From: Peptococcaceae bacterium
Lineage (GTDB): Bacteria; Bacillota; Peptococcia; DRI-13; UBA5745
Assembly (NCBI GenBank): GCA_034927285.1
Contig: JAYFQF010000011.1
Coordinates: forward strand, 23,670 to 87,669
DNA length: 64,000 nt
Reading direction: 5' to 3'
The position numbers and the translations under genes were made by a program. How positions within the stretch are numbered: position 1 is the stretch's first letter; each line of letters starts with the position of its first letter. Shown here piece after piece: positions 19,044-31,382 of this stretch. The notes beneath the pieces were generated by a model that was given only the letters and a program-made list of their open reading frames with translations, was not told the origin of the DNA and did not search any database.

Positions 19044-20411
19044 ATGATGATCGAACCAAATAAAATGAGTAATCTCCTGGAGCAGGATCCTTACAAATAC
19101 TCTCTGCAGGATGTGCCGGAGCCCAATTTGTACCGGGATCTCTTCCCCTACTCGGAAGTTCCGAAAATCCCTTTCAATCACCGGCGGGTTCCCATCGGCA
19201 TGCCCAGGGAGATCTGGATTACCGACACCACCTTCCGGGACGGCCAGCAGTCCCGGGCTCCATACAGCGTCCGGCAAATCGTAGATCTGTATAAGCTGAT
19301 GGCGGAGCTGGGCGGGCCCCAGGGCAAGATCCGTCAGACGGAGTTTTTCGTCTACAGCCCCAAGGACCGGGAGGCCCTGACCAAATGTATGGAGCTGGAC
19401 TTGCGGTATCCCGAGCCCACCACCTGGATTCGGGCCACTAAGGAGGACTTCCGCCTGGTAAAGGAAATCGGCATCAAGGAAACCGGCATCTTAGTCAGCT
19501 GCTCCGATTACCATATCTTCAAAAAACTGAAAAAGACCAGGAAACAGGCCATGGAAGGCTATCTGGCGGTGGTTTCCCAGGCCTTGGAGCTGGGTATCCG
19601 GCCCCGCTGCCACCTGGAGGACATCACCCGGGCCGATTACTACGGCTTTGTGGTGCCCTTTGTCAATGAGCTGATGGAGCTTTCCCGCCAGGCCGGCATC
19701 CCGGTGAAGATCCGGGCCTGCGATACCATGGGCTACGGCATCCCCTATTCCGGCGTAGCCCTGCCCCGAAGCGTTCCCGGCATTATCTACGGCCTTCAGC
19801 ATTATTCCGACGTCCCTTCAGAGATGCTGGAATGGCACGGTCATAACGACTTTAACAAAGCGGTGATCAACGCCAGCATAGCCTGGATCTATGGCTGCTG
19901 CGCCGTAAACTGCTCCCTTCTGGGCATCGGCGAAAGGACCGGCAATATCCCCCTGGAATCCATGGTCTTCGAATACGCCTCCCTTAAGGGCACTTTAGAC
20001 GGGATGGAGCCCAGGGTCATCACCGAAATCGCCCGTTATTTCGAAAAAAATATCGGCTATGCCATCCCGCCCATGACCCCTTTTGTCGGCAAAAACTTTA
20101 ATGTTACCCGGGCCGGTATCCACGCCGACGGCCTGATGAAGGATGAAGAGATCTACAATATTTTTGACACGGCAAAGCTGCTGAACCGGCCCGCTTCGGT
20201 AGCCATCAGCGCCACCTCGGGACTGGCGGGCATCGCCTACTGGATCAACGAGCATTATGAGCTTTCCGGCAGCCGGATAGTGACCAAGAAGGATCCTTTG
20301 GTGATCCGGATCAAGGAATGGATCGACGCCCAGTACGCCGAAGGGCGGCAGACAGTCATCAGCGACAGTGAATTGGAGGCCCTGGTTTCGGCTTTTGAGC
20401 CGGAGGTATAA
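19044..20411 (+). CDS. Re-citrate synthase (DRE-TIM metallolyase family)
   Basis: 'PNLYRDLFPY', 'WITDTTFRDGQQ', 'RCHLEDITRAD', 'EWHGHNDF', 'TRAGIHADG'; no LeuA regulatory domain; next to ICDH. Confidence 0.85.
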   Translation: MMIEPNKMSNLLEQDPYKYSLQDVPEPNLYRDLFPYSEVPKIPFNHRRVPIGMPREIWITDTTFRDGQQSRAPYSVRQIVDLYKLMAELGGPQGKIRQTEFFVYSPKDREALTKCMELDLRYPEPTTWIRATKEDFRLVKEIGIKETGILVSCSDYHIFKKLKKTRKQAMEGYLAVVSQALELGIRPRCHLEDITRADYYGFVVPFVNELMELSRQAGIPVKIRACDTMGYGIPYSGVALPRSVPGIIYGLQHYSDVPSEMLEWHGHNDFNKAVINASIAWIYGCCAVNCSLLGIGERTGNIPLESMVFEYASLKGTLDGMEPRVITEIARYFEKNIGYAIPPMTPFVGKNFNVTRAGIHADGLMKDEEIYNIFDTAKLLNRPASVAISATSGLAGIAYWINEHYELSGSRIVTKKDPLVIRIKEWIDAQYAEGRQTVISDSELEALVSAFEPEV

Positions 20412-20423
20412 GGAGGCAAACAT

Positions 20424-21146
20424 ATGGTTCACCAAGGGAAGTTAAACGCCAAGGCAGCCGGCGAAAGCGTCAGTTCGCTGAGCGTCCGGGTGTTTGAGCA
20501 GCTGGAAGAAGCCATCTTAAACGGAAAAATCCTTCCGGGAGAAAACCTGATCGAATTGAAGCTCTCCCAGGAACTGGGGGTCAGCCGCACTCCGGTGCGG
20601 GAAGCCATCCGCATGCTGGAGCAAAAAAGCCTGGTCCAGATCATCCCCAACAAGGGCGCCGTGGTTTTAGGCATAGATTACAAGGATCTCCTGGACATCT
20701 ACACTATTCGTACCTATATCGAAGGTTTGGCCGCCAGATGGGCCGCGGAAAACATCACCGACCTCCAGATCAAGGAACTGCGGGAGATCATCGACCTGCA
20801 GGAGTTTTACTACATCAAGGATTATTCCCAGCAGATCAACGACCTGGATTCCCGCTTCCATGAACGCATCTATGAATACTGCAACAGCAGGACCCTTCAG
20901 CACATGCTGAAGGACCTCCACCACATGATCCAGCATTTCCGCCAGATCTCAATTTCCGCCGCCGGCCGGGCGGAAAAAGCCATCGGGGAGCACCGGGCCA
21001 TCCTGGAGGCCATCTGCAATAAAGACCCCGTCCAGGCGGAACGGCTGACGGTAGACCATATAAATAACGCGAAAGAAAACCTGATCCGCCTGCTGGAAGG
21101 CAAAGGGGAAAATTCGGTCTCCGGCCGGCAGCCGGATGAAAAATAA
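20424..21146 (+). CDS. GntR family regulator with FCD domain
   Basis: 'LGVSRTPVREAIRML', 'DSRFH', 'EHRAILEAI'. Confidence 0.92.
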   Translation: MVHQGKLNAKAAGESVSSLSVRVFEQLEEAILNGKILPGENLIELKLSQELGVSRTPVREAIRMLEQKSLVQIIPNKGAVVLGIDYKDLLDIYTIRTYIEGLAARWAAENITDLQIKELREIIDLQEFYYIKDYSQQINDLDSRFHERIYEYCNSRTLQHMLKDLHHMIQHFRQISISAAGRAEKAIGEHRAILEAICNKDPVQAERLTVDHINNAKENLIRLLEGKGENSVSGRQPDEK

Positions 21147-21166
21147 TTAGAGGAGTTGGGCAAAAT

Positions 21167-22390
21167 ATGGCGAAATTAAATGAGGTCATTACCAATAACG
21201 ATGCTTTTGATACTCTGATGGAACAATCGGAACAAATTGAGGAAGCCTGCGGGAAATTCCGCGCTCTGATGAAGGAGCAGCTGGACCGGGCGGCGGCCAT
21301 CAAGGCCCAGGGGGATTTTATCGACTATAATTCCCTGGATACCGTCACCATCGGCCTTTGCGGCGGCGACGGCATCGGCCCTGTGATTATGGCCGAAACC
21401 TGGCGCATTGCCGGCGAGCTGTTAAAAGAGGAGATCGCTTCCGGCAAGATTTGTCTGAAAGAAATCAAAGGCCTGACCTTAGAAAACCGGCAAAAGGCCG
21501 GCAAAGCCATTCCCGACGACGTGATGGCGGAGCTGAAGTCCTGCCAGGTGATCTTGAAGGGTCCTACCACTACGCCCCAAAAAGGCCAGGCCGGTCCCAA
21601 TATCGAAAGCGCCAACGTGGCTATGCGCAAAGCTTTGGACCTGTTCGCCAATCTGCGTCCCGTAAAGGTGCCGGAACTGGGTATTGACTGGACCTTTTTC
21701 CGGGAAAATACCGAGGGGGCCTACGCTGTGGGCAGCAAGGGATTCGACGTCTCCCGGGATCTGTGCGTGGATTTCACCATCGTCACCCGGGAGGGCTGCC
21801 GGCGTATCATCCAGGCCGCCTTTGATTTTGCGGAAAAAAACGGCAAGACCATGGTCACCGCCGTCACCAAGGCCAATATCATCAAAACCAGCGACGGCAG
21901 GTTCCTGGAGATTTTTCACGAGATCGGCGATAAATATCCCCAGATTGTCAAGGACGAGCGCTATATCGACATCATGACCGCCAATCTGATCAACGAACGC
22001 AACCGCTCCTCCTTCCAGGTTATGGTGCTGCCTAACCTGTACGGCGATATCCTCACCGACGAAGCCGCTCAGCTCCAGGGCGGAGTAGGCACCGCCGGTT
22101 CCGCCAATATCGGTAAGCGTTACGCCATGTTTGAAGCGATCCACGGCTCCGGGGACCGGATGGTGGCCGAAGGCCGGGCTGCTTACGCCAATCCCGCCTC
22201 CATTCTGCGGGCTTTGGCTATGCTTTTATCCCATATCGGCCGCCAGGATAAAGCCGGCGTCCTGGATAAAGCTTTGGATATCTGCCTTATCGAAGAAAAA
22301 AAAGTAGTGGTCACCGGTCATCCCGACGGCGCCTCCTGCCGTCAGTTTGGTGACTACCTGCTGAAGACCATAAAAACCGCCGCCAGATAA
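21167..22390 (+). CDS. Isocitrate/isopropylmalate dehydrogenase family, probably isocitrate dehydrogenase
   Basis: 'GDGIGP', 'LKGPTTTP', 'SANVAMRK', 'RENTEG', 'KANI', 'NLYGDILTD', 'FEAIHGS'; follows Re-citrate synthase. Confidence 0.85.
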   Translation: MAKLNEVITNNDAFDTLMEQSEQIEEACGKFRALMKEQLDRAAAIKAQGDFIDYNSLDTVTIGLCGGDGIGPVIMAETWRIAGELLKEEIASGKICLKEIKGLTLENRQKAGKAIPDDVMAELKSCQVILKGPTTTPQKGQAGPNIESANVAMRKALDLFANLRPVKVPELGIDWTFFRENTEGAYAVGSKGFDVSRDLCVDFTIVTREGCRRIIQAAFDFAEKNGKTMVTAVTKANIIKTSDGRFLEIFHEIGDKYPQIVKDERYIDIMTANLINERNRSSFQVMVLPNLYGDILTDEAAQLQGGVGTAGSANIGKRYAMFEAIHGSGDRMVAEGRAAYANPASILRALAMLLSHIGRQDKAGVLDKALDICLIEEKKVVVTGHPDGASCRQFGDYLLKTIKTAAR

Positions 22391-22458
22391 GCGGCCGTTG
22401 CCTGCAAGCTTTGCCGGCGGCGGCACAGACCACTGCAGGCAGACAGAATTTGCCGGGC

Positions 22459-22523
22459 GGCAGCCTTCCCAAGGGAGTCTTGCCAAAGGGCAGTTTCCCT
22501 TCGGGAAGCTGCCCTCTTTTTTT
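22459..22523 (+). terminator. Tandem similar hairpins ending in an intrinsic terminator
   Basis: ggcagccttccc-aa-gggagtcttgcc then gggcagtttccc-ttc-gggaagctgccc plus T7. Confidence 0.7.
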
Positions 22524-22575
22524 CCGCCGGCAGTGCGGGGCGGCCTCCCATTAAATTCAGAAAGGACTTGAGCCG

Positions 22576-24882
22576 ATGACCGCCGAGGAAAAAAACCAAC
22601 ATCATCAGCAGGAAGCCGGTGCCTCCGGTGGAAAAAGCGATGATCTCAGCCGCAGCCAATTGGATTTCCTGCACGAAAAGGCCTACCTTGAGCAAACGAA
22701 AAGTCTTTTGCACCGTACAATGCTGGAGCTTTTCGATCTGAGGGATGCGGAAAAACAAAAGCTGGCCGAGGCCCGGGAAAGTCTGGCGGAAAACCAGCCC
22801 GCTTCCGCCGGGGATCCGGACAACCAAAACGATACCGGCCAATACCTGACGGAGCTGGAAAACCGGATGGCGGTCTTTCAGCTGTATAATGAGCGGCTGG
22901 AAAAATACAGCCGTCTGCAGGACAGTCCATATTTCGGCCGGATCGATTTTGCCGAGGAAGGCTTTGGCGCCGAGAGCTTCTACATCGGGCGGCAAAGCCT
23001 GCGGGATCCCAAAACCTATCAGATCCAGGTCTGTGACTGGCGCACGCCTCTGGCCAGCCTTTTTTACCAGTGCCTGCCCGGAGAGGCATCCTATGTTTCA
23101 CCGGCCGGCAAGATCCGGGGCCGCCTGCTGCTGAAGCGTCAATATGAGATCCGGCGGGGAGAACTGAAATACTTTTTTGATACGGACCTGCACATCAAGG
23201 ACGATATCCTGAAGACGGTATTATCCCAGCAGGCCTCTCCCAAAATGCGGGCCATCGTGGAAACCCTGCAGGAAACCCAGGACCGCCTGATCCGTAACCG
23301 GGAATCCAGACTTTTGATGATTCAGGGCTCCGCCGGTTCCGGTAAAACCAGCCTGGCCCTGCACCGGGCGGCCTACCTGATGTATCAGGAGATGAAAAAC
23401 GCCCTCTCCGCCAAAGAGATCATCATTATCTCCCCCAACCATCTTTTCACCAAATATATCGACCGGGTGCTGCCGGAGCTGGGCGAAGAAAACATCGCCA
23501 GCCTTACCTTTGAGGATGTATTTTTAGCCAACTTCTCCGGGAGCCTGCCCCTGGAAAGCCGGCGGGAGCAGCTGGACAGGCTTTTAGGGATCCGTGATCA
23601 GGAAGAGTACCTGCTGGAATGCTCGGAGATCGCCTTTAAATCCTCGGCGGAGTTTGCCCTGATCCTGCGGCGTCTGGCGGATTACTATGAACGGCGCATC
23701 AAGGAATTGCCGGAATTCTATTACCACGGCCAATACATCGCCACTTCCCGGGAACTGCGGGAGGAGCTTTTACGGGACCGGGCCGGCATCCCCCTGGCCA
23801 AACGGCTGGGGCAGATGCGAAGCCGCCTGTCGGAAAAGCTGTATAAATCCCGCAAGGCCCGGCTGCCGCAGTTGGAGGACTTTACCACCAATTATCCGGA
23901 CCATCAGCTGGAGGTCCGTTCCTTTGCCCGCCTCTTATCCATGAAGCGCTCGAAGTATTTGAACCGCACTTTGGAGAAGCTGACGGAAATCGACGCGATG
24001 GGCCTTTATCAACGCCTGTTTACGGACCGGGCCCTCTTTGACCATCTGGCCAAAGGGATACGCCTGCCGGAAAATATCGAAGATCTGCTGAAGCATTGCC
24101 GGCAAATGCCCTTAGGCTATAACGACGCCCCGGCCCTCACCTACCTCCGGGTGCTGCTGGAGGGCAGCGCCGACTATCCCCAGTTTCGTCAGGTCATGGT
24201 GGACGAGGCTCAGGATTACGGCCCCCTCCACTTCCTGCTGTTGAGAAAATGGTTTCCCCGGGCGGAATTTACCGTTTTGGGCGACGTCCAGCAAAGCCTG
24301 GCAGAGGATAAAAAGCTGGACTTCTATGAACAGGTGGCCGAAAGCCTGGGTCTTCCCGGTTCTCCCTTAGCCGTATTAAAGGAGACCTACCGCAGTACTG
24401 CGGAGATTTCCGCCTTCTGCCGCCGCCTGGCGGCAGACCCCTCCCTTTTGCTGCCTTTTGACCGCCGGGGTCCGGAACCCGCCTTGCTGCAGGCGGCGGA
24501 CCGGGCAGGCATGGTGGAGCTTTTAACGGGACAAGTAAAAGCTTATCGGGAGGAAGGACTGGGCTCCATTGCTATCATCACCAAAACCGGCGCCGAAGCC
24601 GAAGCCCTCTACCGGGATCTGGCAGGCCGGATAGCCCTGCAGTTAGTTCAGGAAGCAGATAAAGCGGATTTAAGCCGCAGCCTGCTTTTGCCGGTAGCCT
24701 TAGCCAAAGGGCTGGAATTTGACGCCGTCATCCTTTGGGACGCCGGAGCCAACGCCTATTCCTGGCCTGCCCAGCGAAACCTGCTTTATGTGGCCGTCAG
24801 CCGCGCGCTGCACCGTCTGGCCCTGATTTACCAGGGCCCCCCCACCCCTTTGCTCCGGTCAAAGCCCGCGGAAGGAAAGTAG
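22576..24882 (+). CDS. helD: HelD family RNA polymerase recycling helicase-like ATPase
   Basis: 'SPYFGRIDF', 'DWRTP', 'QGSAGSGKTSLALHR', 'YIDRVLPELGE', DEAQD, 'GDVQQ', 'KGLEFDAV', 'YVAVSRA'. Confidence 0.92.
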   Translation: MTAEEKNQHHQQEAGASGGKSDDLSRSQLDFLHEKAYLEQTKSLLHRTMLELFDLRDAEKQKLAEARESLAENQPASAGDPDNQNDTGQYLTELENRMAVFQLYNERLEKYSRLQDSPYFGRIDFAEEGFGAESFYIGRQSLRDPKTYQIQVCDWRTPLASLFYQCLPGEASYVSPAGKIRGRLLLKRQYEIRRGELKYFFDTDLHIKDDILKTVLSQQASPKMRAIVETLQETQDRLIRNRESRLLMIQGSAGSGKTSLALHRAAYLMYQEMKNALSAKEIIIISPNHLFTKYIDRVLPELGEENIASLTFEDVFLANFSGSLPLESRREQLDRLLGIRDQEEYLLECSEIAFKSSAEFALILRRLADYYERRIKELPEFYYHGQYIATSRELREELLRDRAGIPLAKRLGQMRSRLSEKLYKSRKARLPQLEDFTTNYPDHQLEVRSFARLLSMKRSKYLNRTLEKLTEIDAMGLYQRLFTDRALFDHLAKGIRLPENIEDLLKHCRQMPLGYNDAPALTYLRVLLEGSADYPQFRQVMVDEAQDYGPLHFLLLRKWFPRAEFTVLGDVQQSLAEDKKLDFYEQVAESLGLPGSPLAVLKETYRSTAEISAFCRRLAADPSLLLPFDRRGPEPALLQAADRAGMVELLTGQVKAYREEGLGSIAIITKTGAEAEALYRDLAGRIALQLVQEADKADLSRSLLLPVALAKGLEFDAVILWDAGANAYSWPAQRNLLYVAVSRALHRLALIYQGPPTPLLRSKPAEGK

Positions 24883-24930: not shown

Positions 24931-25383
24931 ATGAGTGAAGAGGCACGCCAGATCCGGACAAGCGCGTTATTCAGGCGCCTGTTCAAAACCTCAAGCCTGG
25001 AGCGGTTCATGAAAACAAACGCAGCGGCAATGCGGCTGCAGCCTTTCCACGAATACATAACGGAACTGTGTAAAAAAAGAGGCCAGGTGCCGGAGCATAT
25101 TATCCGGCGGGCGAATATCGAGCGCTCCTTCGGACACCAGCTTTTTAAAGGAACAAAAAAACCCTCCCGGGATACGGTCCTGCAATTGGCCTTCGGATTC
25201 GAAGCCGATCCGGATGCGGCTCAGGAGCTTTTAAGGCATGGGCGGATGAGTCCTTTATATCCCCGGGTAAAGCGGGACGCGGCAATCATCTATTGTCTGC
25301 ATAACCGCTTTACGATCCTGGAAACCCAAAGCGTTCTCCATGAAATGGGGCTGCCGTTGATTGGAGGTGGCCGGGGAAAATGA
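24931..25383 (+). CDS. Small XRE-like HTH protein
   Basis: RBS AAGGAG; 'IIRRANIERSFGHQLFKGTKKPSRDTVLQLAFG', 'LL...LYPRVKRDAAIIYC'; stop overlaps kinase start (ATGA). Confidence 0.75.
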   Translation: MSEEARQIRTSALFRRLFKTSSLERFMKTNAAAMRLQPFHEYITELCKKRGQVPEHIIRRANIERSFGHQLFKGTKKPSRDTVLQLAFGFEADPDAAQELLRHGRMSPLYPRVKRDAAIIYCLHNRFTILETQSVLHEMGLPLIGGGRGK

Positions 25384-26762
25384 AGGACGTCAAAGCGGCG
25401 GTAAATGACATTCTGGATTCCTGTGATAATTTGGCATATCCCCCGGGGTTCCTGGCCGGATACGATCAATTGGAGTGTCTGGCCAAAAGTCACGGCACGG
25501 AAACTTTTTTAGTAAAACAAAAAGGCAGCCAAAAGCTTTTTGTGGCAAAATGCTATGAGAAAAAACCCGATTCTTTCGTGCAGGAAAGCAGCATTTTAAG
25601 ATCCTTAGCGCACAATGGAATGCCTGCCTTTGCCGATGAGTTCCAAAATGACGAAATGGTCTGCATCATCCGCGAATATGTGGAAGGACAGCCTCTGGAC
25701 CGGTATATCGCGGAAAACCAGCTCACCAGTAAAAGGGTTATCGATATCGGCCTTCAGCTTTGCGATATCCTCATTTACCTCCACAGCCGGGAAAAGCCCG
25801 TGATCCACAGAGACATCAAACCCCAGAACATCATCGTAAAAAGTGACGGACAGATCGTTCTCATCGATTTCGACATTTCCAGGGTGTATAAAAGCGAAAA
25901 GGACACCGATACCCGGTTCCTGGGAACAAAGGAATACGCTCCGCCGGAGCAATACGGCTTTTCGCAAACGGATTGCCGCGCCGATATTTATTCCCTGGGG
26001 GTTTTGCTTCGCTTCATGCTGACGGGAAGCGAGAAAGAAAATCCCGGTCTCCGTATCGATAAACCCCTGGGGAGGATTATTAAAAAGTGTACCGCCTTTG
26101 CGCCAAGCCGGCGCTTTGAGAGCGCGGCGGCGGTGAAAAAGGCTTTGCTGGTGGCAAATCCCCAGACGCAGAGGATCCGCAGAGCCCTTTTGGTCCTTTG
26201 CTGGGCCGCGGCTATCGCTTTGTTTTCCCTGGGCGGGATCAGGTGGTATCGCGATGCGGCCCGGGATCCCTTTGCCGCAGGAACCATCCCCGCGGTTTTG
26301 ACAGATGAGGAAAGAGTGGCCGACGCCGTTTCCTATCTGAAAGACAAGTATGGCACGGATCTTTTTGACCAAAGCGGCGCCTATGGGGATATTGGCTTTA
26401 TCAAAACAGTCCTGACGGATATGTACGGATACGACAGGGAATATGTCCACGCCATGCCGGAGGAAGGGCTTCCCCATGAAAGCGAAAAGAATTTCCTTCC
26501 CTGGGGGATGGGGGATGAGCAATATATCCCCCGGGACGTTATGGTTTATGTGGCCGTCAAAATTTATTGGAAGGATAAGGTTTCCGACTATTCAAGCCTG
26601 AAAGACGACAACGGTTATTATCCCGGGGTCCGGGTGGCGGTGGCCTTTGCCGAGGAAACGGGAATACTCACCGGCGTGGGACGGCCTGAGGATATCACCA
26701 AAGGCGAAGTAGCCGTTCTCCTGGCCAACGCCGACAGAGTATACGAAGCCATGAAAGAATAA
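25380..26762 (+). CDS. Hanks-type Ser/Thr protein kinase with TM helix and SLH-like C-terminal ectodomain
   Basis: VAK, HRDIKPQN, DFD, GTKEYAPPEQYG, ADIYSLG; TM 'ALLVLCWAAAIALFSLGGI'; C-terminal 'AEETGILTG...ITKGEVAVLL'. Confidence 0.9.
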   Translation: MKDVKAAVNDILDSCDNLAYPPGFLAGYDQLECLAKSHGTETFLVKQKGSQKLFVAKCYEKKPDSFVQESSILRSLAHNGMPAFADEFQNDEMVCIIREYVEGQPLDRYIAENQLTSKRVIDIGLQLCDILIYLHSREKPVIHRDIKPQNIIVKSDGQIVLIDFDISRVYKSEKDTDTRFLGTKEYAPPEQYGFSQTDCRADIYSLGVLLRFMLTGSEKENPGLRIDKPLGRIIKKCTAFAPSRRFESAAAVKKALLVANPQTQRIRRALLVLCWAAAIALFSLGGIRWYRDAARDPFAAGTIPAVLTDEERVADAVSYLKDKYGTDLFDQSGAYGDIGFIKTVLTDMYGYDREYVHAMPEEGLPHESEKNFLPWGMGDEQYIPRDVMVYVAVKIYWKDKVSDYSSLKDDNGYYPGVRVAVAFAEETGILTGVGRPEDITKGEVAVLLANADRVYEAMKE

Positions 26763-26778
26763 AAACAAAGTTTTCTTC

Positions 26779-26806
26779 AAAGGTGGGCCGGCAGCCCACC
26801 TTTTTC
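26779..26806 (+). terminator. Intrinsic terminator after kinase
   Basis: aaaggtgggc-cggca-gcccaccttttt. Confidence 0.7.
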
Positions 26807-26831
26807 CTTTTTCTTTTTTGTAAAATGATGA

Positions 26832-26850
26832 TGTCAATGACGGTTTGACA
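26832..26850. promoter_or_regulatory. Candidate operator palindrome TGTCAA-N7-TTGACA
   Basis: between TAAAAT (-10-like, 26821-26) and the RBS of the SLH gene. Confidence 0.45.
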
Positions 26851-26874
26851 ATTGATAAAAAAGGAGAAGATGAG

Positions 26875-28152
26875 ATGAAGAAAACGGTAAAAAGCATTCT
26901 GTCCATTATTTTAATGCTGGGGCTGAACCTGATGATGATCCTGCCGGCGTATGGCGCGGATTTCAACGAGGCGGAAACCAAAGCAAAAGCGCTGAAAAAG
27001 ATAGGCTTATTTCACGGGGTATCTGTAAGCGACTTTGATCTGGACCGGGCCCCTACCCGCACGGAGGCCTTGATTATGCTGATCCGCCTCCTTGGCAAAG
27101 AAACCGAGGTTCAGCAGGGGGACTGGGCCCATTCCTTTACCGACGTGGCTTCCTGGGCGGATAAGTATGTGGCCTACGGCTGCCAAAAAGATCTTGCCCA
27201 GGGCGTTTCGTCTACAGAATTCGGCACCGGCAGCGCCGGTTCGGATATGTATCTGACTTTTATGCTGCAGGCTCTCGGTTACAGCGCTTCGGCGGGAGAC
27301 TTCAACGCGACTGCCCCGGCTGACCTGGCTGCGGCGGTGGGAATTCTGCCCGACGGCGCAGATACTTCAAATTTCCTGCGTGAGGACGCGGTGCTGGTGT
27401 CCTGGGCGGCCCTTGAGGCCCAGTTGAAGGACGGCAGCCAGAAACTGGCGGAAAAACTGACGGCACAGGGCTTATTTACAGGCCAGGATTACGCTCTGGC
27501 AGTCAAGCAGGTAAATGAACAAAAGCCCCAACCCCTTTCCGTTTCTTCCCTCCAGGCCCTTAAAACGGCTTTGGCGGATAAAACCGTGAGAACCATTTCC
27601 ATTGATTCCTTAGGGACCCCTCTGGTGGTTACGGGTGAGCTTACCATACCGGCGGGGGTCACCGTAACGGTAAACCGGGGAAATGATTTCTATATCGAAG
27701 GCTCCTTAACAAATAACGGCGCCCTTGAAATTTTAGGCGCCGATTCCTTCACCGACGATTTCATTAATTACTCCGTCATGGCCGTTCAAAAAGGCGGAAA
27801 GGTGATCAATAACGGAAGGCTTAAGCTCTGCGCATCCGTCATCGGGGATGAAGAAGACCGCGGCCCGGTGGGAGGCCAGCTCCGGGTTTTCGACGGCACC
27901 TTTGAAAACAAAGGCTCCCTTTACCTGGAAGACGGAGGGGTCAATACCCACGGCGGCATGGCCCTTGTGGCCGGCGGCGCCTTTACCAACGGGGCCACTG
28001 TGGTGATGAAAGGCTTTTTCTTCCGTATTGAAAACGGATCTTTTATCAATAATGCCGGCGCCGTGGTAATTAACGGCAGCCATATCTATACGAAAGAAAC
28101 CGGTACCTTTACCAATAACGGCACCCTCTCAGGGGCCGCGGTCAATCAATAA
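26875..28152 (+). CDS. Secreted SLH-domain surface protein with Asn/Gly-rich, probably beta-helical C-terminus
   Basis: signal peptide MKKTVK...AYGA; SLH-like 'DLDRAPTRTEALIML', 'FTDVASWADKYVAYG'; repeated xNNG motifs. Confidence 0.8.
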   Translation: MKKTVKSILSIILMLGLNLMMILPAYGADFNEAETKAKALKKIGLFHGVSVSDFDLDRAPTRTEALIMLIRLLGKETEVQQGDWAHSFTDVASWADKYVAYGCQKDLAQGVSSTEFGTGSAGSDMYLTFMLQALGYSASAGDFNATAPADLAAAVGILPDGADTSNFLREDAVLVSWAALEAQLKDGSQKLAEKLTAQGLFTGQDYALAVKQVNEQKPQPLSVSSLQALKTALADKTVRTISIDSLGTPLVVTGELTIPAGVTVTVNRGNDFYIEGSLTNNGALEILGADSFTDDFINYSVMAVQKGGKVINNGRLKLCASVIGDEEDRGPVGGQLRVFDGTFENKGSLYLEDGGVNTHGGMALVAGGAFTNGATVVMKGFFFRIENGSFINNAGAVVINGSHIYTKETGTFTNNGTLSGAAVNQ

Positions 28153-28165
28153 CCGGGCCTAAAGC

Positions 28166-29740
28166 ATGCCGCGTACCGCACAAAATCTAAAATCAGTTAT
28201 GGACTATTTCGGCATCACAAACAGAGAGCTGGCCGGGGCTCTGGGCGTGGACCCCTCTTTGGTAAGCAGGTGGCTGAATGGTCAGCGTAAACTGAAGGCC
28301 GCCAGCGGTACCATAAATGTCCTGGCCGAGTACATTCTGACCTCAAGCAGGCGCATCCATGATATCCAATGGCTGAAAACGCAGCTTGAACGGGATGAGC
28401 TGCCTGTGGATCTTTCCACCGTGTACCGCATAAAACAAAGCCTGATTCTGTGGCTGGCTTCCGACGGCGAGGATCTGCGGCGCAACCTGGGAGAAACCTC
28501 ATCCCCGCCCGAAGGGCAAAAGGGCCAAGCGGAAAAGAAACCGGCGCCTCTGTCCCATATCGCCCGGGATACGGTCAAAATCGGCTGTCTGGAGCTCGTC
28601 CTCAGTTTGGAGCCGCTGCTTTCCGGACTGCCCCGGGACGCCTCGGCAGACATCTTCCTTTCCCATGACGAAATCGGAGTGATGATCAACGAGGATTTTT
28701 CCCGCCTGCTCCTTAAGACGATTGAAGAAAAACACCTGAAGGTGCGGCTGATGATCTGCATATCGGGCAATACCCGGGCAATGTCCCGTATCATCGCCGT
28801 CTATATGCGGCCGCTGGTTTCGGGACGCCTCCGCCTTTCGGTGGTCCACGGCATGACCCATACCGTCACCAGCCAGATGCACCTGCTCATCCCCGGCAAG
28901 GCGGCCATTCTGGTCACCGAAACTCCCGGCGGCGGCGCTCCGCCGGTGGCGGCTCTTGTCGATGAAGAAAACTTTTTAAAAGAAATCCAGCTTAGTTTTG
29001 AAGAGGCTATCCGTTATGCCCAGCCTGTACTGAATATCTACGACGACGACTTTTCCCGCAATATCCTGGAGATCATCTATCAGGAATTTTGTACTCCCGG
29101 CGCTCTTGACGTGGTGAAAGACAATATCAATCCCATGTATATGGCCGCCGGCGCCTACGACCGTTTCCTGGATACACAGGGGCACAACCGGGAGGAATAC
29201 GCCTGGCGCAGCGCAGAGTTCAGGCGGTTTAAATCCGGCCTGGATGAAACTCTGAAAGGCGGCTCGGTGTTCCGGGAGATCCTTTCCATGAAGCGCCTGG
29301 CGCAGATTGCCCGGGAGGGTTTTTGCCGCATGCCGGGGCTGTATTTCATGACAAAAGGTTTCGTTCTTCTGGATGCGGAAGGCTGCGCCGCCGTTTTAAA
29401 CGGCTACATCCGTTATTTGGAAGCCGCACCGAATTTTCAGGTTCTGATCCTGGACGATATCTCAATCCTGCATGCCGAAAATTGCTGGCAGCTCAAGAAA
29501 AATCATCATCTTGCCATCAACCATTGGAGCGGCGGCCAGCCGGTAATGATCCACTCCGACCAGCTTTTGCTTCTCCGGGAATTTCAGGCTCATTTCGATT
29601 CCCTTTGGGCCCGGGGCCGCGGCTCCATCAGCAGCCGCGGCAGCGTCGTCGCCACCTTGCAGGAGGTATTGAAACAGCTGAACCAAGGCCGGGGAAAAGA
29701 GGAAAAACAGACGGGGATAAGCGCAGACGGCAGGGAATAA
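28166..29740 (+). CDS. Large XRE-HTH regulator with uncharacterised C-terminal region of about 400 aa
   Basis: 'ITNRELAGALGVDPSLVSRWLNGQRK'. Confidence 0.8.
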   Translation: MPRTAQNLKSVMDYFGITNRELAGALGVDPSLVSRWLNGQRKLKAASGTINVLAEYILTSSRRIHDIQWLKTQLERDELPVDLSTVYRIKQSLILWLASDGEDLRRNLGETSSPPEGQKGQAEKKPAPLSHIARDTVKIGCLELVLSLEPLLSGLPRDASADIFLSHDEIGVMINEDFSRLLLKTIEEKHLKVRLMICISGNTRAMSRIIAVYMRPLVSGRLRLSVVHGMTHTVTSQMHLLIPGKAAILVTETPGGGAPPVAALVDEENFLKEIQLSFEEAIRYAQPVLNIYDDDFSRNILEIIYQEFCTPGALDVVKDNINPMYMAAGAYDRFLDTQGHNREEYAWRSAEFRRFKSGLDETLKGGSVFREILSMKRLAQIAREGFCRMPGLYFMTKGFVLLDAEGCAAVLNGYIRYLEAAPNFQVLILDDISILHAENCWQLKKNHHLAINHWSGGQPVMIHSDQLLLLREFQAHFDSLWARGRGSISSRGSVVATLQEVLKQLNQGRGKEEKQTGISADGRE

Positions 29741-29794: not shown

Positions 29795-29841
29795 AATGCT
29801 TAGAAAGCCCTAACTCAAGTTAGGGTTTTCTGAGCATTTTT
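29795..29841 (+). terminator. Intrinsic terminator
   Basis: aatgcttagaaagccctaact/agttagggttttctgagcatt plus T-run. Confidence 0.7.
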
Positions 29842-29975: not shown

Positions 29976-31382
29976 ATGTATCATATGCTCACTTATCTGC
30001 ATTGGCTGTACCTGCTGGTTATTGCAGCCGTGATTATTCTGATGATCCGAAAACGGGAAGTGGTCATTCCCTGCATCGCCGGTACTTTCTGCATCGGCTT
30101 TGCTTACGGCGGCGGCAGCATCATCGGCGGCGCCCAGGCGGTATTCAACGCCATGATGGCGGCCGGCGCCGATTTGTTCGATATCATGCTGGTCATCGCT
30201 TTAATGGTTTCCATGCTGAAAGCCCTGGCCGGCATGGGGGCTGATAAGATCATGATCTCTCCGGCTGCCAGATTGATTAAAAAGCCCGCCGTTGCCTATT
30301 GGATCCTGGCCTTGATCATGTATATCGCCTCCACCTTCTTTTGGCCCACCCCCGCCACCGCTTTGGTGGGTACGATCCTGATCCCCATCGCGGTGAAAGC
30401 CGGCCTGAAACCCATGGCCGCCTGCATCGCCATAAATCTGGCCGGTCACGGCATGGCTCTTTCCGGCGATTTGGTGCTGCAGGGAGCCCCTTCCATCACC
30501 GCCGGGGCTGCCGGCGTGGAAATCGGCGCCGTGCTGCGCTCCGGCTCCACCTTTGCTTTCATTACCGGCGCCGTGGCCCTGATTTTGTCCTTCATCCTGA
30601 ACCGTAAGGATATCTTCGGCGAAAAAGCTGAGGCGGCTGCCCAAAACAGGCCGGCGGAAGAGGAAAAAGCCGCTGAAGGTTCCCCCGGCTATGCCAGATT
30701 TTTTGCCGGAGCGGTGCCGGTCATTTTCCTGATCATTATCATCCGGATGATCCTGGGCAGTTACGTGGAAGGGATCGCCAAGATCTATGGCGGCGGGGCT
30801 ACCGCCTTGCTGGGGGGAACAGCCGCCCTGATCATGGTAGCCGCCACCGCGGCGGACGCCAAAAAGGACTGCCTGGAAAAGGTCGTCGGCTACCTCCGGG
30901 AAGGGCTTTTGTTTTCTATTAATATCTTTGCTCCCGTTATTCCCATCGCCGGCTTTTTTATGCTGGGCTCCCCCGGCAACGCTCCCGCCATCCTGGGGGA
31001 GGGAGCGCCGGGTCTGCTCTTTGAGCTGGGCACCGCTTTAGCCAACGCTCTGCCTTTAGGGGCCTTGCCTCTGGCCGTGGGCATTGTCCTCATCGGCGCC
31101 ATCACCGGCCTGGACGGTTCCGGCTTCTCCGGTCTGCCCCTGATCGGGGCCCTGGCCGGCTCTTTGGCTGTGCCCGCCGGCCTGGATCCGGCGATTTTGG
31201 CCGGTCTGGGGCAGACCGCCGCCATCTGGGTAGGCGGCGGCTGTTTGAGCGCCTGGTCTTTCGGCGCCGTAGCTTCTGCCGGCGTAGCCGGGGTTCCCGC
31301 TGCCGACCTGGTGCGCAAAAACCTTGTGCCGGTGATCGCCGGCCTGATTATCTCCACCCTGGCGGCAGTCCTCATGATGTAG
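29976..31382 (+). CDS. Polytopic membrane protein, putative secondary transporter (ion-transporter superfamily-like)
   Basis: about 12-13 hydrophobic helices; 'FFWPTPATAL', 'LDGSGFSGLPL' hairpin-type motifs. Confidence 0.7.
   Translation: MYHMLTYLHWLYLLVIAAVIILMIRKREVVIPCIAGTFCIGFAYGGGSIIGGAQAVFNAMMAAGADLFDIMLVIALMVSMLKALAGMGADKIMISPAARLIKKPAVAYWILALIMYIASTFFWPTPATALVGTILIPIAVKAGLKPMAACIAINLAGHGMALSGDLVLQGAPSITAGAAGVEIGAVLRSGSTFAFITGAVALILSFILNRKDIFGEKAEAAAQNRPAEEEKAAEGSPGYARFFAGAVPVIFLIIIIRMILGSYVEGIAKIYGGGATALLGGTAALIMVAATAADAKKDCLEKVVGYLREGLLFSINIFAPVIPIAGFFMLGSPGNAPAILGEGAPGLLFELGTALANALPLGALPLAVGIVLIGAITGLDGSGFSGLPLIGALAGSLAVPAGLDPAILAGLGQTAAIWVGGGCLSAWSFGAVASAGVAGVPAADLVRKNLVPVIAGLIISTLAAVLMM

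Follow-up and report, generated by a model that had tools for sequence, protein, structure and literature searches.

Hanks-type serine/threonine kinases of Gram-positive bacteria have been described as few and pleiotropic (PMC4601284). A transmembrane Hanks kinase with a regulator of its own is known from the ECF43 pairs, among them PknS-EcfK of Xanthomonas citri and PknT-EcfP of Vibrio parahaemolyticus, in which the cognate regulator is activated by phosphorylation (PMC13147305). The DYD kinases, as they have been described, carry a DYD motif, frequently have the beta3 lysine changed to arginine and lack the alphaC glutamate (PMC12599244). The locus considered here occupies positions 24,931 to 29,740 of a 64,000-nucleotide stretch of contig JAYFQF010000011.1 (assembly GCA_034927285.1) from a Peptococcaceae bacterium; this whole stretch is called the window. 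The locus encodes a small helix-turn-helix (HTH) protein, a membrane Hanks kinase, a secreted surface protein and a large HTH regulator of the XRE type. It resembles the ECF43 pairs in co-encoding a transmembrane Hanks kinase and a regulator whose family conserves a threonine (PMC13147305), and the DNA following the kinase gene suggests that this regulator may activate a promoter upstream of the surface-protein gene.

The kinase and its small helix-turn-helix partner

All four open reading frames lie on the + strand (24931-25383, 25380-26762, 26875-28152 and 28166-29740), where an earlier, sequence-only reading of the window had placed them, as an open-reading-frame check confirmed. The coupling that it saw between the small HTH and kinase genes is real, with an ATGA overlap in which the kinase frame opens at 25380, as is the 13-nt gap between the surface-protein and XRE genes. 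Each of the four genes is present in single copy in the host genome (2.97 Mb, 98% complete).

The first gene (24931..25383, + strand) encodes a protein of 150 amino acids that neighbourhoods, alignments and profile searches suggest to be a Cro/C1-type HTH protein and a predicted kinase-controlled activator. Its earlier assignment as an HTH protein is less secure than was stated: the sole Pfam match, HTH_31, reaches just E 0.09, although Atlas scores of 0.95-0.97 tie it to clusters holding 14-32% HTH members; in the PDB, C.AhdI is matched weakly (E 0.18). Pfam and NCBIfam contain no curated family and gave no sigma-factor match for the protein, a PDB sequence search found no solved relative, and OmpR-type DNA-binding, BTA and FHA domains were not matched in the Pfam scan. 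The protein belongs to an unnamed Bacillota family, which was found in 75 of 399 sampled Clostridia genomes at E <= 1e-8 (52 at E <= 1e-12) and in 13 of the 301 genomes of a phylum sample; its profile gathers 1,634 clusters (50% identity) at E <= 1e-10, macro-domain fusions counted.

This family keeps company with the kinase. At 21 of the 29 best new loci from the 399 Clostridia genomes a kinase gene lies within 1.5 kb, often divergently oriented, and a PP2C gene adjoins one of the 29. The pair remains linked though inverted in three cassettes (L033, L038, L047), and the two proteins occur fused in both orders, as HTH-kinase (P0296) and as kinase-HTH (L094/P0378). The sequence-only reading had connected the kinase with one of the two HTH proteins of the locus, and these neighbourhoods and fusions single out the small one.

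The predicted phospho-acceptor is Thr10 (codon at 24958..24960, + strand), the single strongly conserved residue within an otherwise variable N-terminus. It is threonine in 127 of the 133 aligned rows covering the column, with serine in 2, and in 22/22 and 58/60 rows of smaller alignments. Weak hits in the 399-genome search are mostly macro-domain fusions, which align to the profile only from position 41-42 and therefore lack the Thr segment; the near-invariant Arg115 is also absent in two that were inspected. At L071:799-1830 and L075:1498-3048 the HTH module forms the C-terminal part of macro-domain proteins of ~340 amino acids, and a vWA-like gene, recognised by eye, follows the L071 fusion. 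Proteins with two tandem copies of the module (P0281, P0287, P0289, P0290, P0309, P0310 and P0352) suggest that it acts as a dimer. An excisionase-like frame of ~60 amino acids lies just upstream of the small HTH gene in 4 of 26 cassettes (L022, L023, L028, L029) and was not seen in the window.

The second gene (25380..26762, + strand) encodes a Hanks-type kinase of 460 amino acids, with a kinase domain (Pfam Pkinase, E 2e-33), one hydrophobic helix at about residues 268-288, in keeping with the transmembrane helix of the sequence-only reading, and an ectodomain at 292-460. K57, H143-R144-D145, K147, N150, D163, E190 and D202 are kept in 60/60 kinase homologues, as are T178 and T183 of the activation segment. 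Judged from the alignment, the Hanks-type hallmarks are all in place, namely the beta3 lysine, HRDxKxxN, the aspartate of DFx, an APE-like glutamate and the alphaF aspartate. PASTA repeats are missing, as had been noted: no PASTA match appeared in Pfam and NCBIfam scans, and the PASTA-kinase model NF033483 scores 114.6 bits against a cut-off of 450. In a search with one query, no PP2C gene was found in the window region or at 56 XRE loci, which agrees with the earlier observation; the sole PP2C gene found in the genome adjoins PrkC on C33. A third kinase, on C45 of the same genome and outside the window, is a 1,164-amino-acid open frame with a repeat-rich C-terminus. At L222:14129-15718 a tandem-repeat insertion lies inside the kinase catalytic domain, and the upstream small HTH gene is seemingly frameshifted.

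The description of the ectodomain as SLH-like, that is, similar to S-layer homology (SLH) domains, is tentative, because 60 homologues matched 32 Pfam families and the 25 of these that were listed include no SLH family. The ectodomain scores 0.92 in the Atlas to a cluster with 36% SLH members (147/256 features), and in a search of four sequences its profile matches one SLH protein confirmed by Pfam (E 6e-8). A pairing of ectodomain and neighbouring SLH protein through shared ancestry is not supported by hhalign, which gives 0.4%.

The large XRE protein was used to collect related cassettes. An alignment of 66 homologues led to 56 loci in GTDB genomes, nearly all from Clostridia-like Bacillota, with one from Leptolinea and one (L020) from the cultured Lutispora saccharofermentans m25, which has the XRE form, and co-occurrence was counted at the 44 loci with at least 6 kb of upstream DNA, the 12 with less being excluded. 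The four families do co-occur in other genomes: a small HTH and a kinase gene lie within 10 kb at 26 of the 44 loci, an SLH gene is present at 15, and 13 have all four families, 6 of them also with an SLH-like ectodomain. Among 30 cassette kinases, 9 have an SLH-like ectodomain and 21 a leucine-rich repeat (LRR) ectodomain, and a quick tree of the kinase domains shows two or more changes of type. All nine SLH-type kinases stand beside an SLH gene and none has an LRR neighbour, whereas 11/21 LRR kinases have an LRR neighbour and 7/21 an SLH gene. Sensing through the SLH protein, once suggested for this locus, is therefore not supported as a general rule. Other cassette neighbours encode LRR, WG, Ig-like, zinc-ribbon and unclassified proteins (95 of 170 selected frames scanned). 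Since ectodomain and cargo differ between loci, sensor and cargo appear exchangeable and the four-gene set is one version among others. Across these loci, the system is modular, with a core made up of a membrane Hanks kinase and a 150-amino-acid HTH protein.

The promoter after the kinase gene and the genes behind it

A terminator and a palindrome had been noted between the two gene pairs, and both structures are there: a 10-bp hairpin with a T-run (26779..26803, + strand; hairpin scan z -2.4), a probable terminator of the HTH-kinase transcript, and TGTCAA-N7-TTGACA at 26832-26850. Aligned DNA 3' of the kinase gene contains two conserved boxes around TAxxxT. Box A (26783..26799), the palindrome GTG[GTA]GC-N5-GC[CAT]CAC, lies within the hairpin near -42 and is the predicted small-HTH activator site. 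A predicted -10 element, TAAAAT (26821..26826, + strand), follows 21 nt past Box A with no -35 consensus. Box B (26832..26852), TGTCA-N-TGACA with a third half-site, spans the predicted start and is the predicted XRE operator, as alignment and co-loss indicate. The two boxes are spaced by exactly 32 nt at 29 of 36 sites, a count that requires no -10 element, although the box matrix was trained on 26 of these 36 loci; TA...T stands at +21 from Box A in 34/36 sites with a downstream Box B. The label of terminator thus stands in part, as the hairpin with its T-run is real, but the main role of the element is probably that of an operator, set at a constant distance from a -10 element. At the position of a -35 element, Box A promoters resemble TTGACA at 0-3 of 6 positions. 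In class II promoters, activators bind palindromes whose centre lies near -42, repeats that overlap +1 serve repressors, and promoters without a -35 element need an inducible activator.

The distribution of the boxes in related genomes indicates which protein goes with which. Box A, without Box B, lies upstream of 7/8 distant HTH genes whose recognition helix reads IE[KR][ST] and of 0/21 others, and 3/3 HTH genes with an [AS]EIY helix have a TATGC version of it; the helix classes were set after inspecting the data, and some loci are kin. On this comparison Box A covaries with the small-HTH recognition helix, and a simpler code of S/T/N against I/V in the helix failed. At seven XRE loci that lack the kinase pair, TTGACA-17 nt-TAxxxT and Box B are present and Box A is absent. 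A close small HTH is found in 0/7 of these genomes (best E 2e-29) versus 12/12 Box A genomes tested (E <= 1.4e-50), in a comparison that took in 35 of 57 entries. Conversely, two genomes, G704 (two loci) and G537, have the HTH, kinase, Box A, -10 element and SLH gene while Box B is absent; these genomes are 98% and 97% complete and hold only a distant XRE (E 1e-4). G363 also has no Box B but is uninformative, because its contig ends inside the SLH gene. One locus, L030, retains the XRE with neither promoter type and no stand-alone HTH in the genome, and looks decayed. Box B-like repeats occur beside several of 13 distant XRE proteins of 500 amino acids. In this sequence comparison, the occurrence of Box A follows that of the small HTH, and the occurrence of Box B that of the large XRE. 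The two HTH proteins, formerly regarded as alternative targets of the kinase, are accordingly better assigned to two different boxes of one promoter. A wider family of XRE proteins of ~500 amino acids (L108-L119, L004) has similar recognition helices and TGTCA/TGACA repeats and lies near metabolic or surface genes.

The third gene (26875..28152, + strand), the predicted output, encodes a secreted protein of 425 amino acids with a signal peptide, a divergent SLH region and a C-terminal repeat domain; its ATG at 26875 is preceded by AAGGAG. The protein itself (P0003) has no Pfam SLH match at E 0.1, all 15 homologues scanned match PF00395, 6 of them at or above the cut-off, and PDB entry 6cwc is matched at E 0.016. 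By these homologue matches it is an SLH protein, with SLH repeats after the signal peptide, and its C-terminal repeats weakly match beta-helix adhesin families. The earlier view of this gene as the regulated output is likely to be correct. Elsewhere, a run of genes with a Box A/Box B promoter includes a 729-amino-acid radical SAM/SPASM protein with two SAM domains (L221:9058-11247; TIGR04083 above cut-off), which has similar counterparts in L032, L043 and L045 and is accompanied by small Cys-rich genes. Box A/small-HTH units at L200, L201, L202, L194 and L079 stand beside a radical SAM pair and a NusG-like gene, recognised by eye.

The fourth gene (28166..29740, + strand) encodes the large XRE, a predicted autoregulated repressor of 524 amino acids with an N-terminal Cro/C1 HTH and two PLD/TrmB-fold domains without HKD. 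HTH_3 is matched in 62/66 members at E up to 1. In a model built from the alignment (pLDDT 86), a disordered linker connects a Cro/C1 HTH to two alpha/beta domains, and the N-terminus is matched by C.EcoT38IS (Z 8.0, rmsd 2.5, 76 residues). A fold search with the model returned two-domain PLD enzymes, and domain 1 resembles TrmBL2, NucT, FAM83B and TrmB at Z 12.5-13.6; the fold call is well tested for domain 1 and rests for domain 2 on the two-domain PLD matches. The catalytic HxKxxxxD motif is present in 0/54 members. Many members carry a W-H-x-K string with an invariant K444 in domain 2, where the histidine is glutamine in the window XRE. We infer from the model a ligand-sensing regulator like TrmB. 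A PDB sequence search found no real relative, with weak HigA matches only; of 39 Pfam families matched, the 25 listed do not include DUF5753, which a presumed XRE-DUF5753 (WhiJ-like) relationship would call for together with a DUF397 partner. The close XRE family is present in 2/399 Clostridia genomes. At L107:3-3105 a divergent member lies directly before an unrelated FHA-kinase gene, with no clear Box B.

The composite promoter motif occurs once in the window and in 0 of 100 shuffles. Used alone to search metagenomes, it retrieved 24 hits, of which 19 are distinct and 2 are the same as loci already collected. A gene of the system lies beside 23 of the 24; the XRE is present in 9 of the 12 with 3 kb downstream and the HTH in 12 of the 15 with 2.5 kb upstream. 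Viral contigs gave 0 hits. One genome, G779, combines a small HTH, an LRR kinase, two Box A/Box B promoters and an XRE.

A related pair occurs in Listeria innocua and L. monocytogenes (L266:1640-3938, L267:1660-3938), where a kinase with C-terminal hydrophobic segments and a DFD motif (profile E 1e-55) is divergent from a small HTH gene whose product (profile E 1e-40) keeps the threonine. CTATGC-N5-GCATAG follows right after the kinase stop codon, ahead of a DUF5067 lipoprotein gene, with an imperfect -10 candidate 22 nt from the palindrome. An imperfect second site lies upstream of the HTH gene; it failed a two-mismatch scan, which itself performed at chance (2 hits vs 1.17 expected). Three of the Listeria records are labelled as plasmids, but they look chromosomal because they measure 0.4-2.9 Mb and are typed non-mobilizable. 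The genes are presumably lmo0617-lmo0619, and lmo0618 is unmentioned in one Listeria paper and one review.

Proposed mechanism and its alternatives

It is moderately probable that the kinase phosphorylates the small HTH protein at Thr10, that the phosphorylated protein occupies Box A and activates a promoter lacking a -35 element, and that the XRE represses the same promoter through Box B. A surface cue would dimerise or otherwise activate the kinase, and the activated kinase would phosphorylate Thr10. The small HTH would then occupy Box A near -42 and, from this position, recruit polymerase. The XRE, placed on Box B over the start site, would block the promoter until its own ligand releases it, and its two PLD/TrmB-fold domains would supply this second input, which depends on the ligand. 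One promoter would drive both the surface gene and the XRE gene, so the XRE would repress its own operon in a negative feedback, and the output would be a wall-anchored surface protein. Gene linkage, fusions, the conserved threonine, intact catalytic residues, promoter anatomy and the joint gain and loss of the boxes are what is observed, and to these the mechanism would add DNA binding, activator and repressor roles, and phosphorylation with its direction.

Several observations weigh against this mechanism. No kinase lies within 1.5 kb at 8 of the 29 small-HTH loci, some of which are on short contigs, and 18 of the 29 small-HTH genes have neither box variant within 350 nt. A Box A site in G484 adjoins HTH genes with a different helix. 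The Box A pattern gives 37 hits in 401 genomes and 37 in a reversed control, so that its signal lies only in position; 15 of the 37 hits, the training locus among them, have a small-HTH gene no more than 2.5 kb away, and the genes downstream of these 15 encode the small HTH itself or secreted proteins and lipoproteins. The seven TTGACA promoters form one clade and therefore amount to one event, the losses of Box B all fall in one genus, and G151 and G318, for which completeness was not stated, retain Box B with no XRE found. The Box A stem is terminator-like in that it covaries, G-U pairs included (88% of cells paired). Thr10 could instead be a structural helix cap, although its strict conservation over Ser, Asp or Asn fits a kinase site better. 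Finally, the kinase has no GxGxxG loop, one glycine (G39) being kept in 58/60 homologues; DFD replaces DFG in 58/60 of them (among the 30 cassette kinases, DFD in 18, DFG in 11 and DFE in 1); and the alphaC column is Glu in just 35/60, with Glu69 present in the window kinase.

The features of the kinase bear on an alternative in which the DNA logic is right and the kinase link differs, through inhibitory phosphorylation, another residue, or membrane sequestering with little catalysis. The direction of phosphorylation is not readable from sequence, some small-HTH loci have no kinase nearby, and the degenerate glycine loop and DFD motif recall the related DYD kinases, described as often being pseudokinases (PMC12599244). 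Against this stand the invariance of the catalytic Lys, HRD, DFx Asp and two activation-segment threonines in 60/60 homologues and the strict threonine at position 10, which would suit a kinase site. Promoters without a -35 element also need an inducible activator, and this alternative is unlikely on balance, if by no means negligible.

It is less probable still, to the point of being doubtful, that the large XRE is the target of the kinase pathway, whether through phosphorylation of the XRE or with the small protein as an anti-repressor, Box A being secondary. The FHA-kinase gene that follows the XRE at L107, another kinase near the XRE at L044 and the many conserved Ser/Thr residues of the XRE would fit such an arrangement. 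However, most of these residues are kept in kinase-less clades too, the small HTH at E <= 1e-12 is found in 52/399 genomes against 2/399 for the close XRE, so that many genomes with kinase-HTH-Box A units lack this XRE, and the XRE with Box B occurs without the kinase-HTH pair.

Covariation of the Box A stem would also be expected if the kinase-HTH and SLH-XRE pairs had nothing in common beyond sharing an inherited cassette, Box A being an ordinary terminator. Because the stem covaries with G-U pairs and a T-run follows Box A in most cassette copies, it probably does double as a terminator where it follows the kinase stop codon, and each module is found alone. Nevertheless, the distance of 21 nt from Box A to the -10 element is fixed, copies before HTH or surface genes elsewhere are without a T-run, several with unpaired halves, and Box A promoters are retained at loci whose pair is inverted or lies at another place in the genome (L020, L034, L040, L041, L047, L066). 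TTGACA replaces Box A where the pair is missing, and this alternative is very improbable.

Least credible is a role in anti-phage defence or conflict, as for the Stk2, PD-T4-6 and MADS kinases. PADLOC kinase models do match the kinase domain, with E-values reaching 4.5e-39, and the genes around these loci vary and often encode LRR, zinc-ribbon and repeat proteins. However, no full-length match to such systems, BREX PglW included, was seen: the PADLOC matches span the generic kinase core only (MAD6 94.6 bits vs a cut-off of 460), the other three proteins matched no PADLOC model, the promoter motif is missing from viral contigs, and the kinase carries a transmembrane helix and ectodomain. The regulated surface proteins themselves may have a role in phage or predator defence.

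Around the locus, the window holds co-oriented genes at 19044-24882, homocitrate/isopropylmalate-synthase-like, GntR-regulator and isocitrate-dehydrogenase-like (all below cut-off), followed by helD (NCBIfam above cut-off), which ends 48 nt before the small HTH gene; no separate promoter was seen in this gap. A 20-bp hairpin with a T-run (29795..29838, + strand; z -7.3) is a likely terminator of the SLH-XRE transcript. Beyond it lie the gene of a hydrophobic membrane protein of 468 amino acids (29976-31382), which neither Pfam nor NCBIfam matches, and then a convergent recQ. Rfam gave 0 matches across the window.

Relation to known systems

The likeness to the ECF43 pairs goes together with clear differences. 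The partner here is a 150-amino-acid Cro/C1-type HTH protein, predicted to work with the housekeeping sigma factor, and not an ECF sigma factor; a second regulator, a predicted repressor, would gate the promoter; and the host belongs to the Bacillota and not to the Proteobacteria. A class II activator such as CRP at -41.5 offers a parallel for Box A, as its dimeric site lies over the -35 region of a promoter without a -35 consensus. The fold of the activator is different here, and Box A is also a probable terminator hairpin.

In Mycobacterium tuberculosis, PknH phosphorylates EmbR, a regulator of cell-envelope genes, on threonine and thereby stimulates it (PMC4601284), which would be the relationship predicted here. 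Unlike the small HTH, EmbR is a SARP with OmpR-type, BTA and FHA domains, and several kinases use it as a substrate (PMC4601284). Bacillota membrane Hanks kinases also include PrkC/PknB and Clostridioides difficile CD2148 (PMC8262956, PMC9674922). The window kinase differs from PrkC/PknB in having no PASTA repeats and no adjacent phosphatase. Compared by description, CD2148 is without the GT/S motif that the window kinase keeps; it does not serve as a described example of the present system, since the accounts of it in these sources name no HTH partner or neighbouring regulator (PMC9674922, PMC8262956). The likeness to the DYD family is loose; by its description, that family is set apart by the DFD motif, the retained lysine and the Glu69 of the window kinase (PMC12599244). 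The kinase may fall within one of the 42 families of the Atlas of bacterial STKs (bioRxiv 10.1101/2025.01.12.632604).

The large XRE resembles TrmB and TrmBL2 (5bpd, 2f5t, 3qph) in joining a DNA-binding domain to a non-catalytic PLD-fold effector domain, and its model matches their structures at Z 13.6 (rmsd 3.2, 147 residues) and Z 12.5 (rmsd 3.1, 132 residues). It differs in having a Cro/C1 HTH instead of a winged HTH, tandem PLD-fold domains and 11-13% identity. The fold does not give the ligand, because PLD nucleases score the same Z. The protein adds an uncharacterised tandem PLD-fold sensor with a predicted operator.

A literature search found no description of the small-HTH family or of this layout; its scope did not take in the Listeria locus. 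A broader view, for and against which the case is evenly balanced, is that the small HTH represents a large, undescribed Bacillota class of "response regulators" for Hanks kinases, with swappable ectodomains, a threonine switch, a helix-to-operator code and control of surface proteins from Clostridia to Listeria. At the present locus, such a regulator would enter a two-input gate with a tandem-PLD-fold XRE and use an upstream terminator as its activator site. Widespread dedicated kinase-regulator pairs would alter the picture of few, pleiotropic kinases for Bacillota, and the Listeria pair would, if this view is true, explain a little-studied non-PASTA kinase. With the candidate phospho-site, both operators, the promoter and the targets named, each step is testable with two purified proteins and a reporter, and the related pair in L. 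innocua and L. monocytogenes provides a tractable host. The locus is real and conserved and belongs to the dedicated kinase-regulator kind; it works like the ECF43 pairs and PknH-EmbR and is a member of neither.

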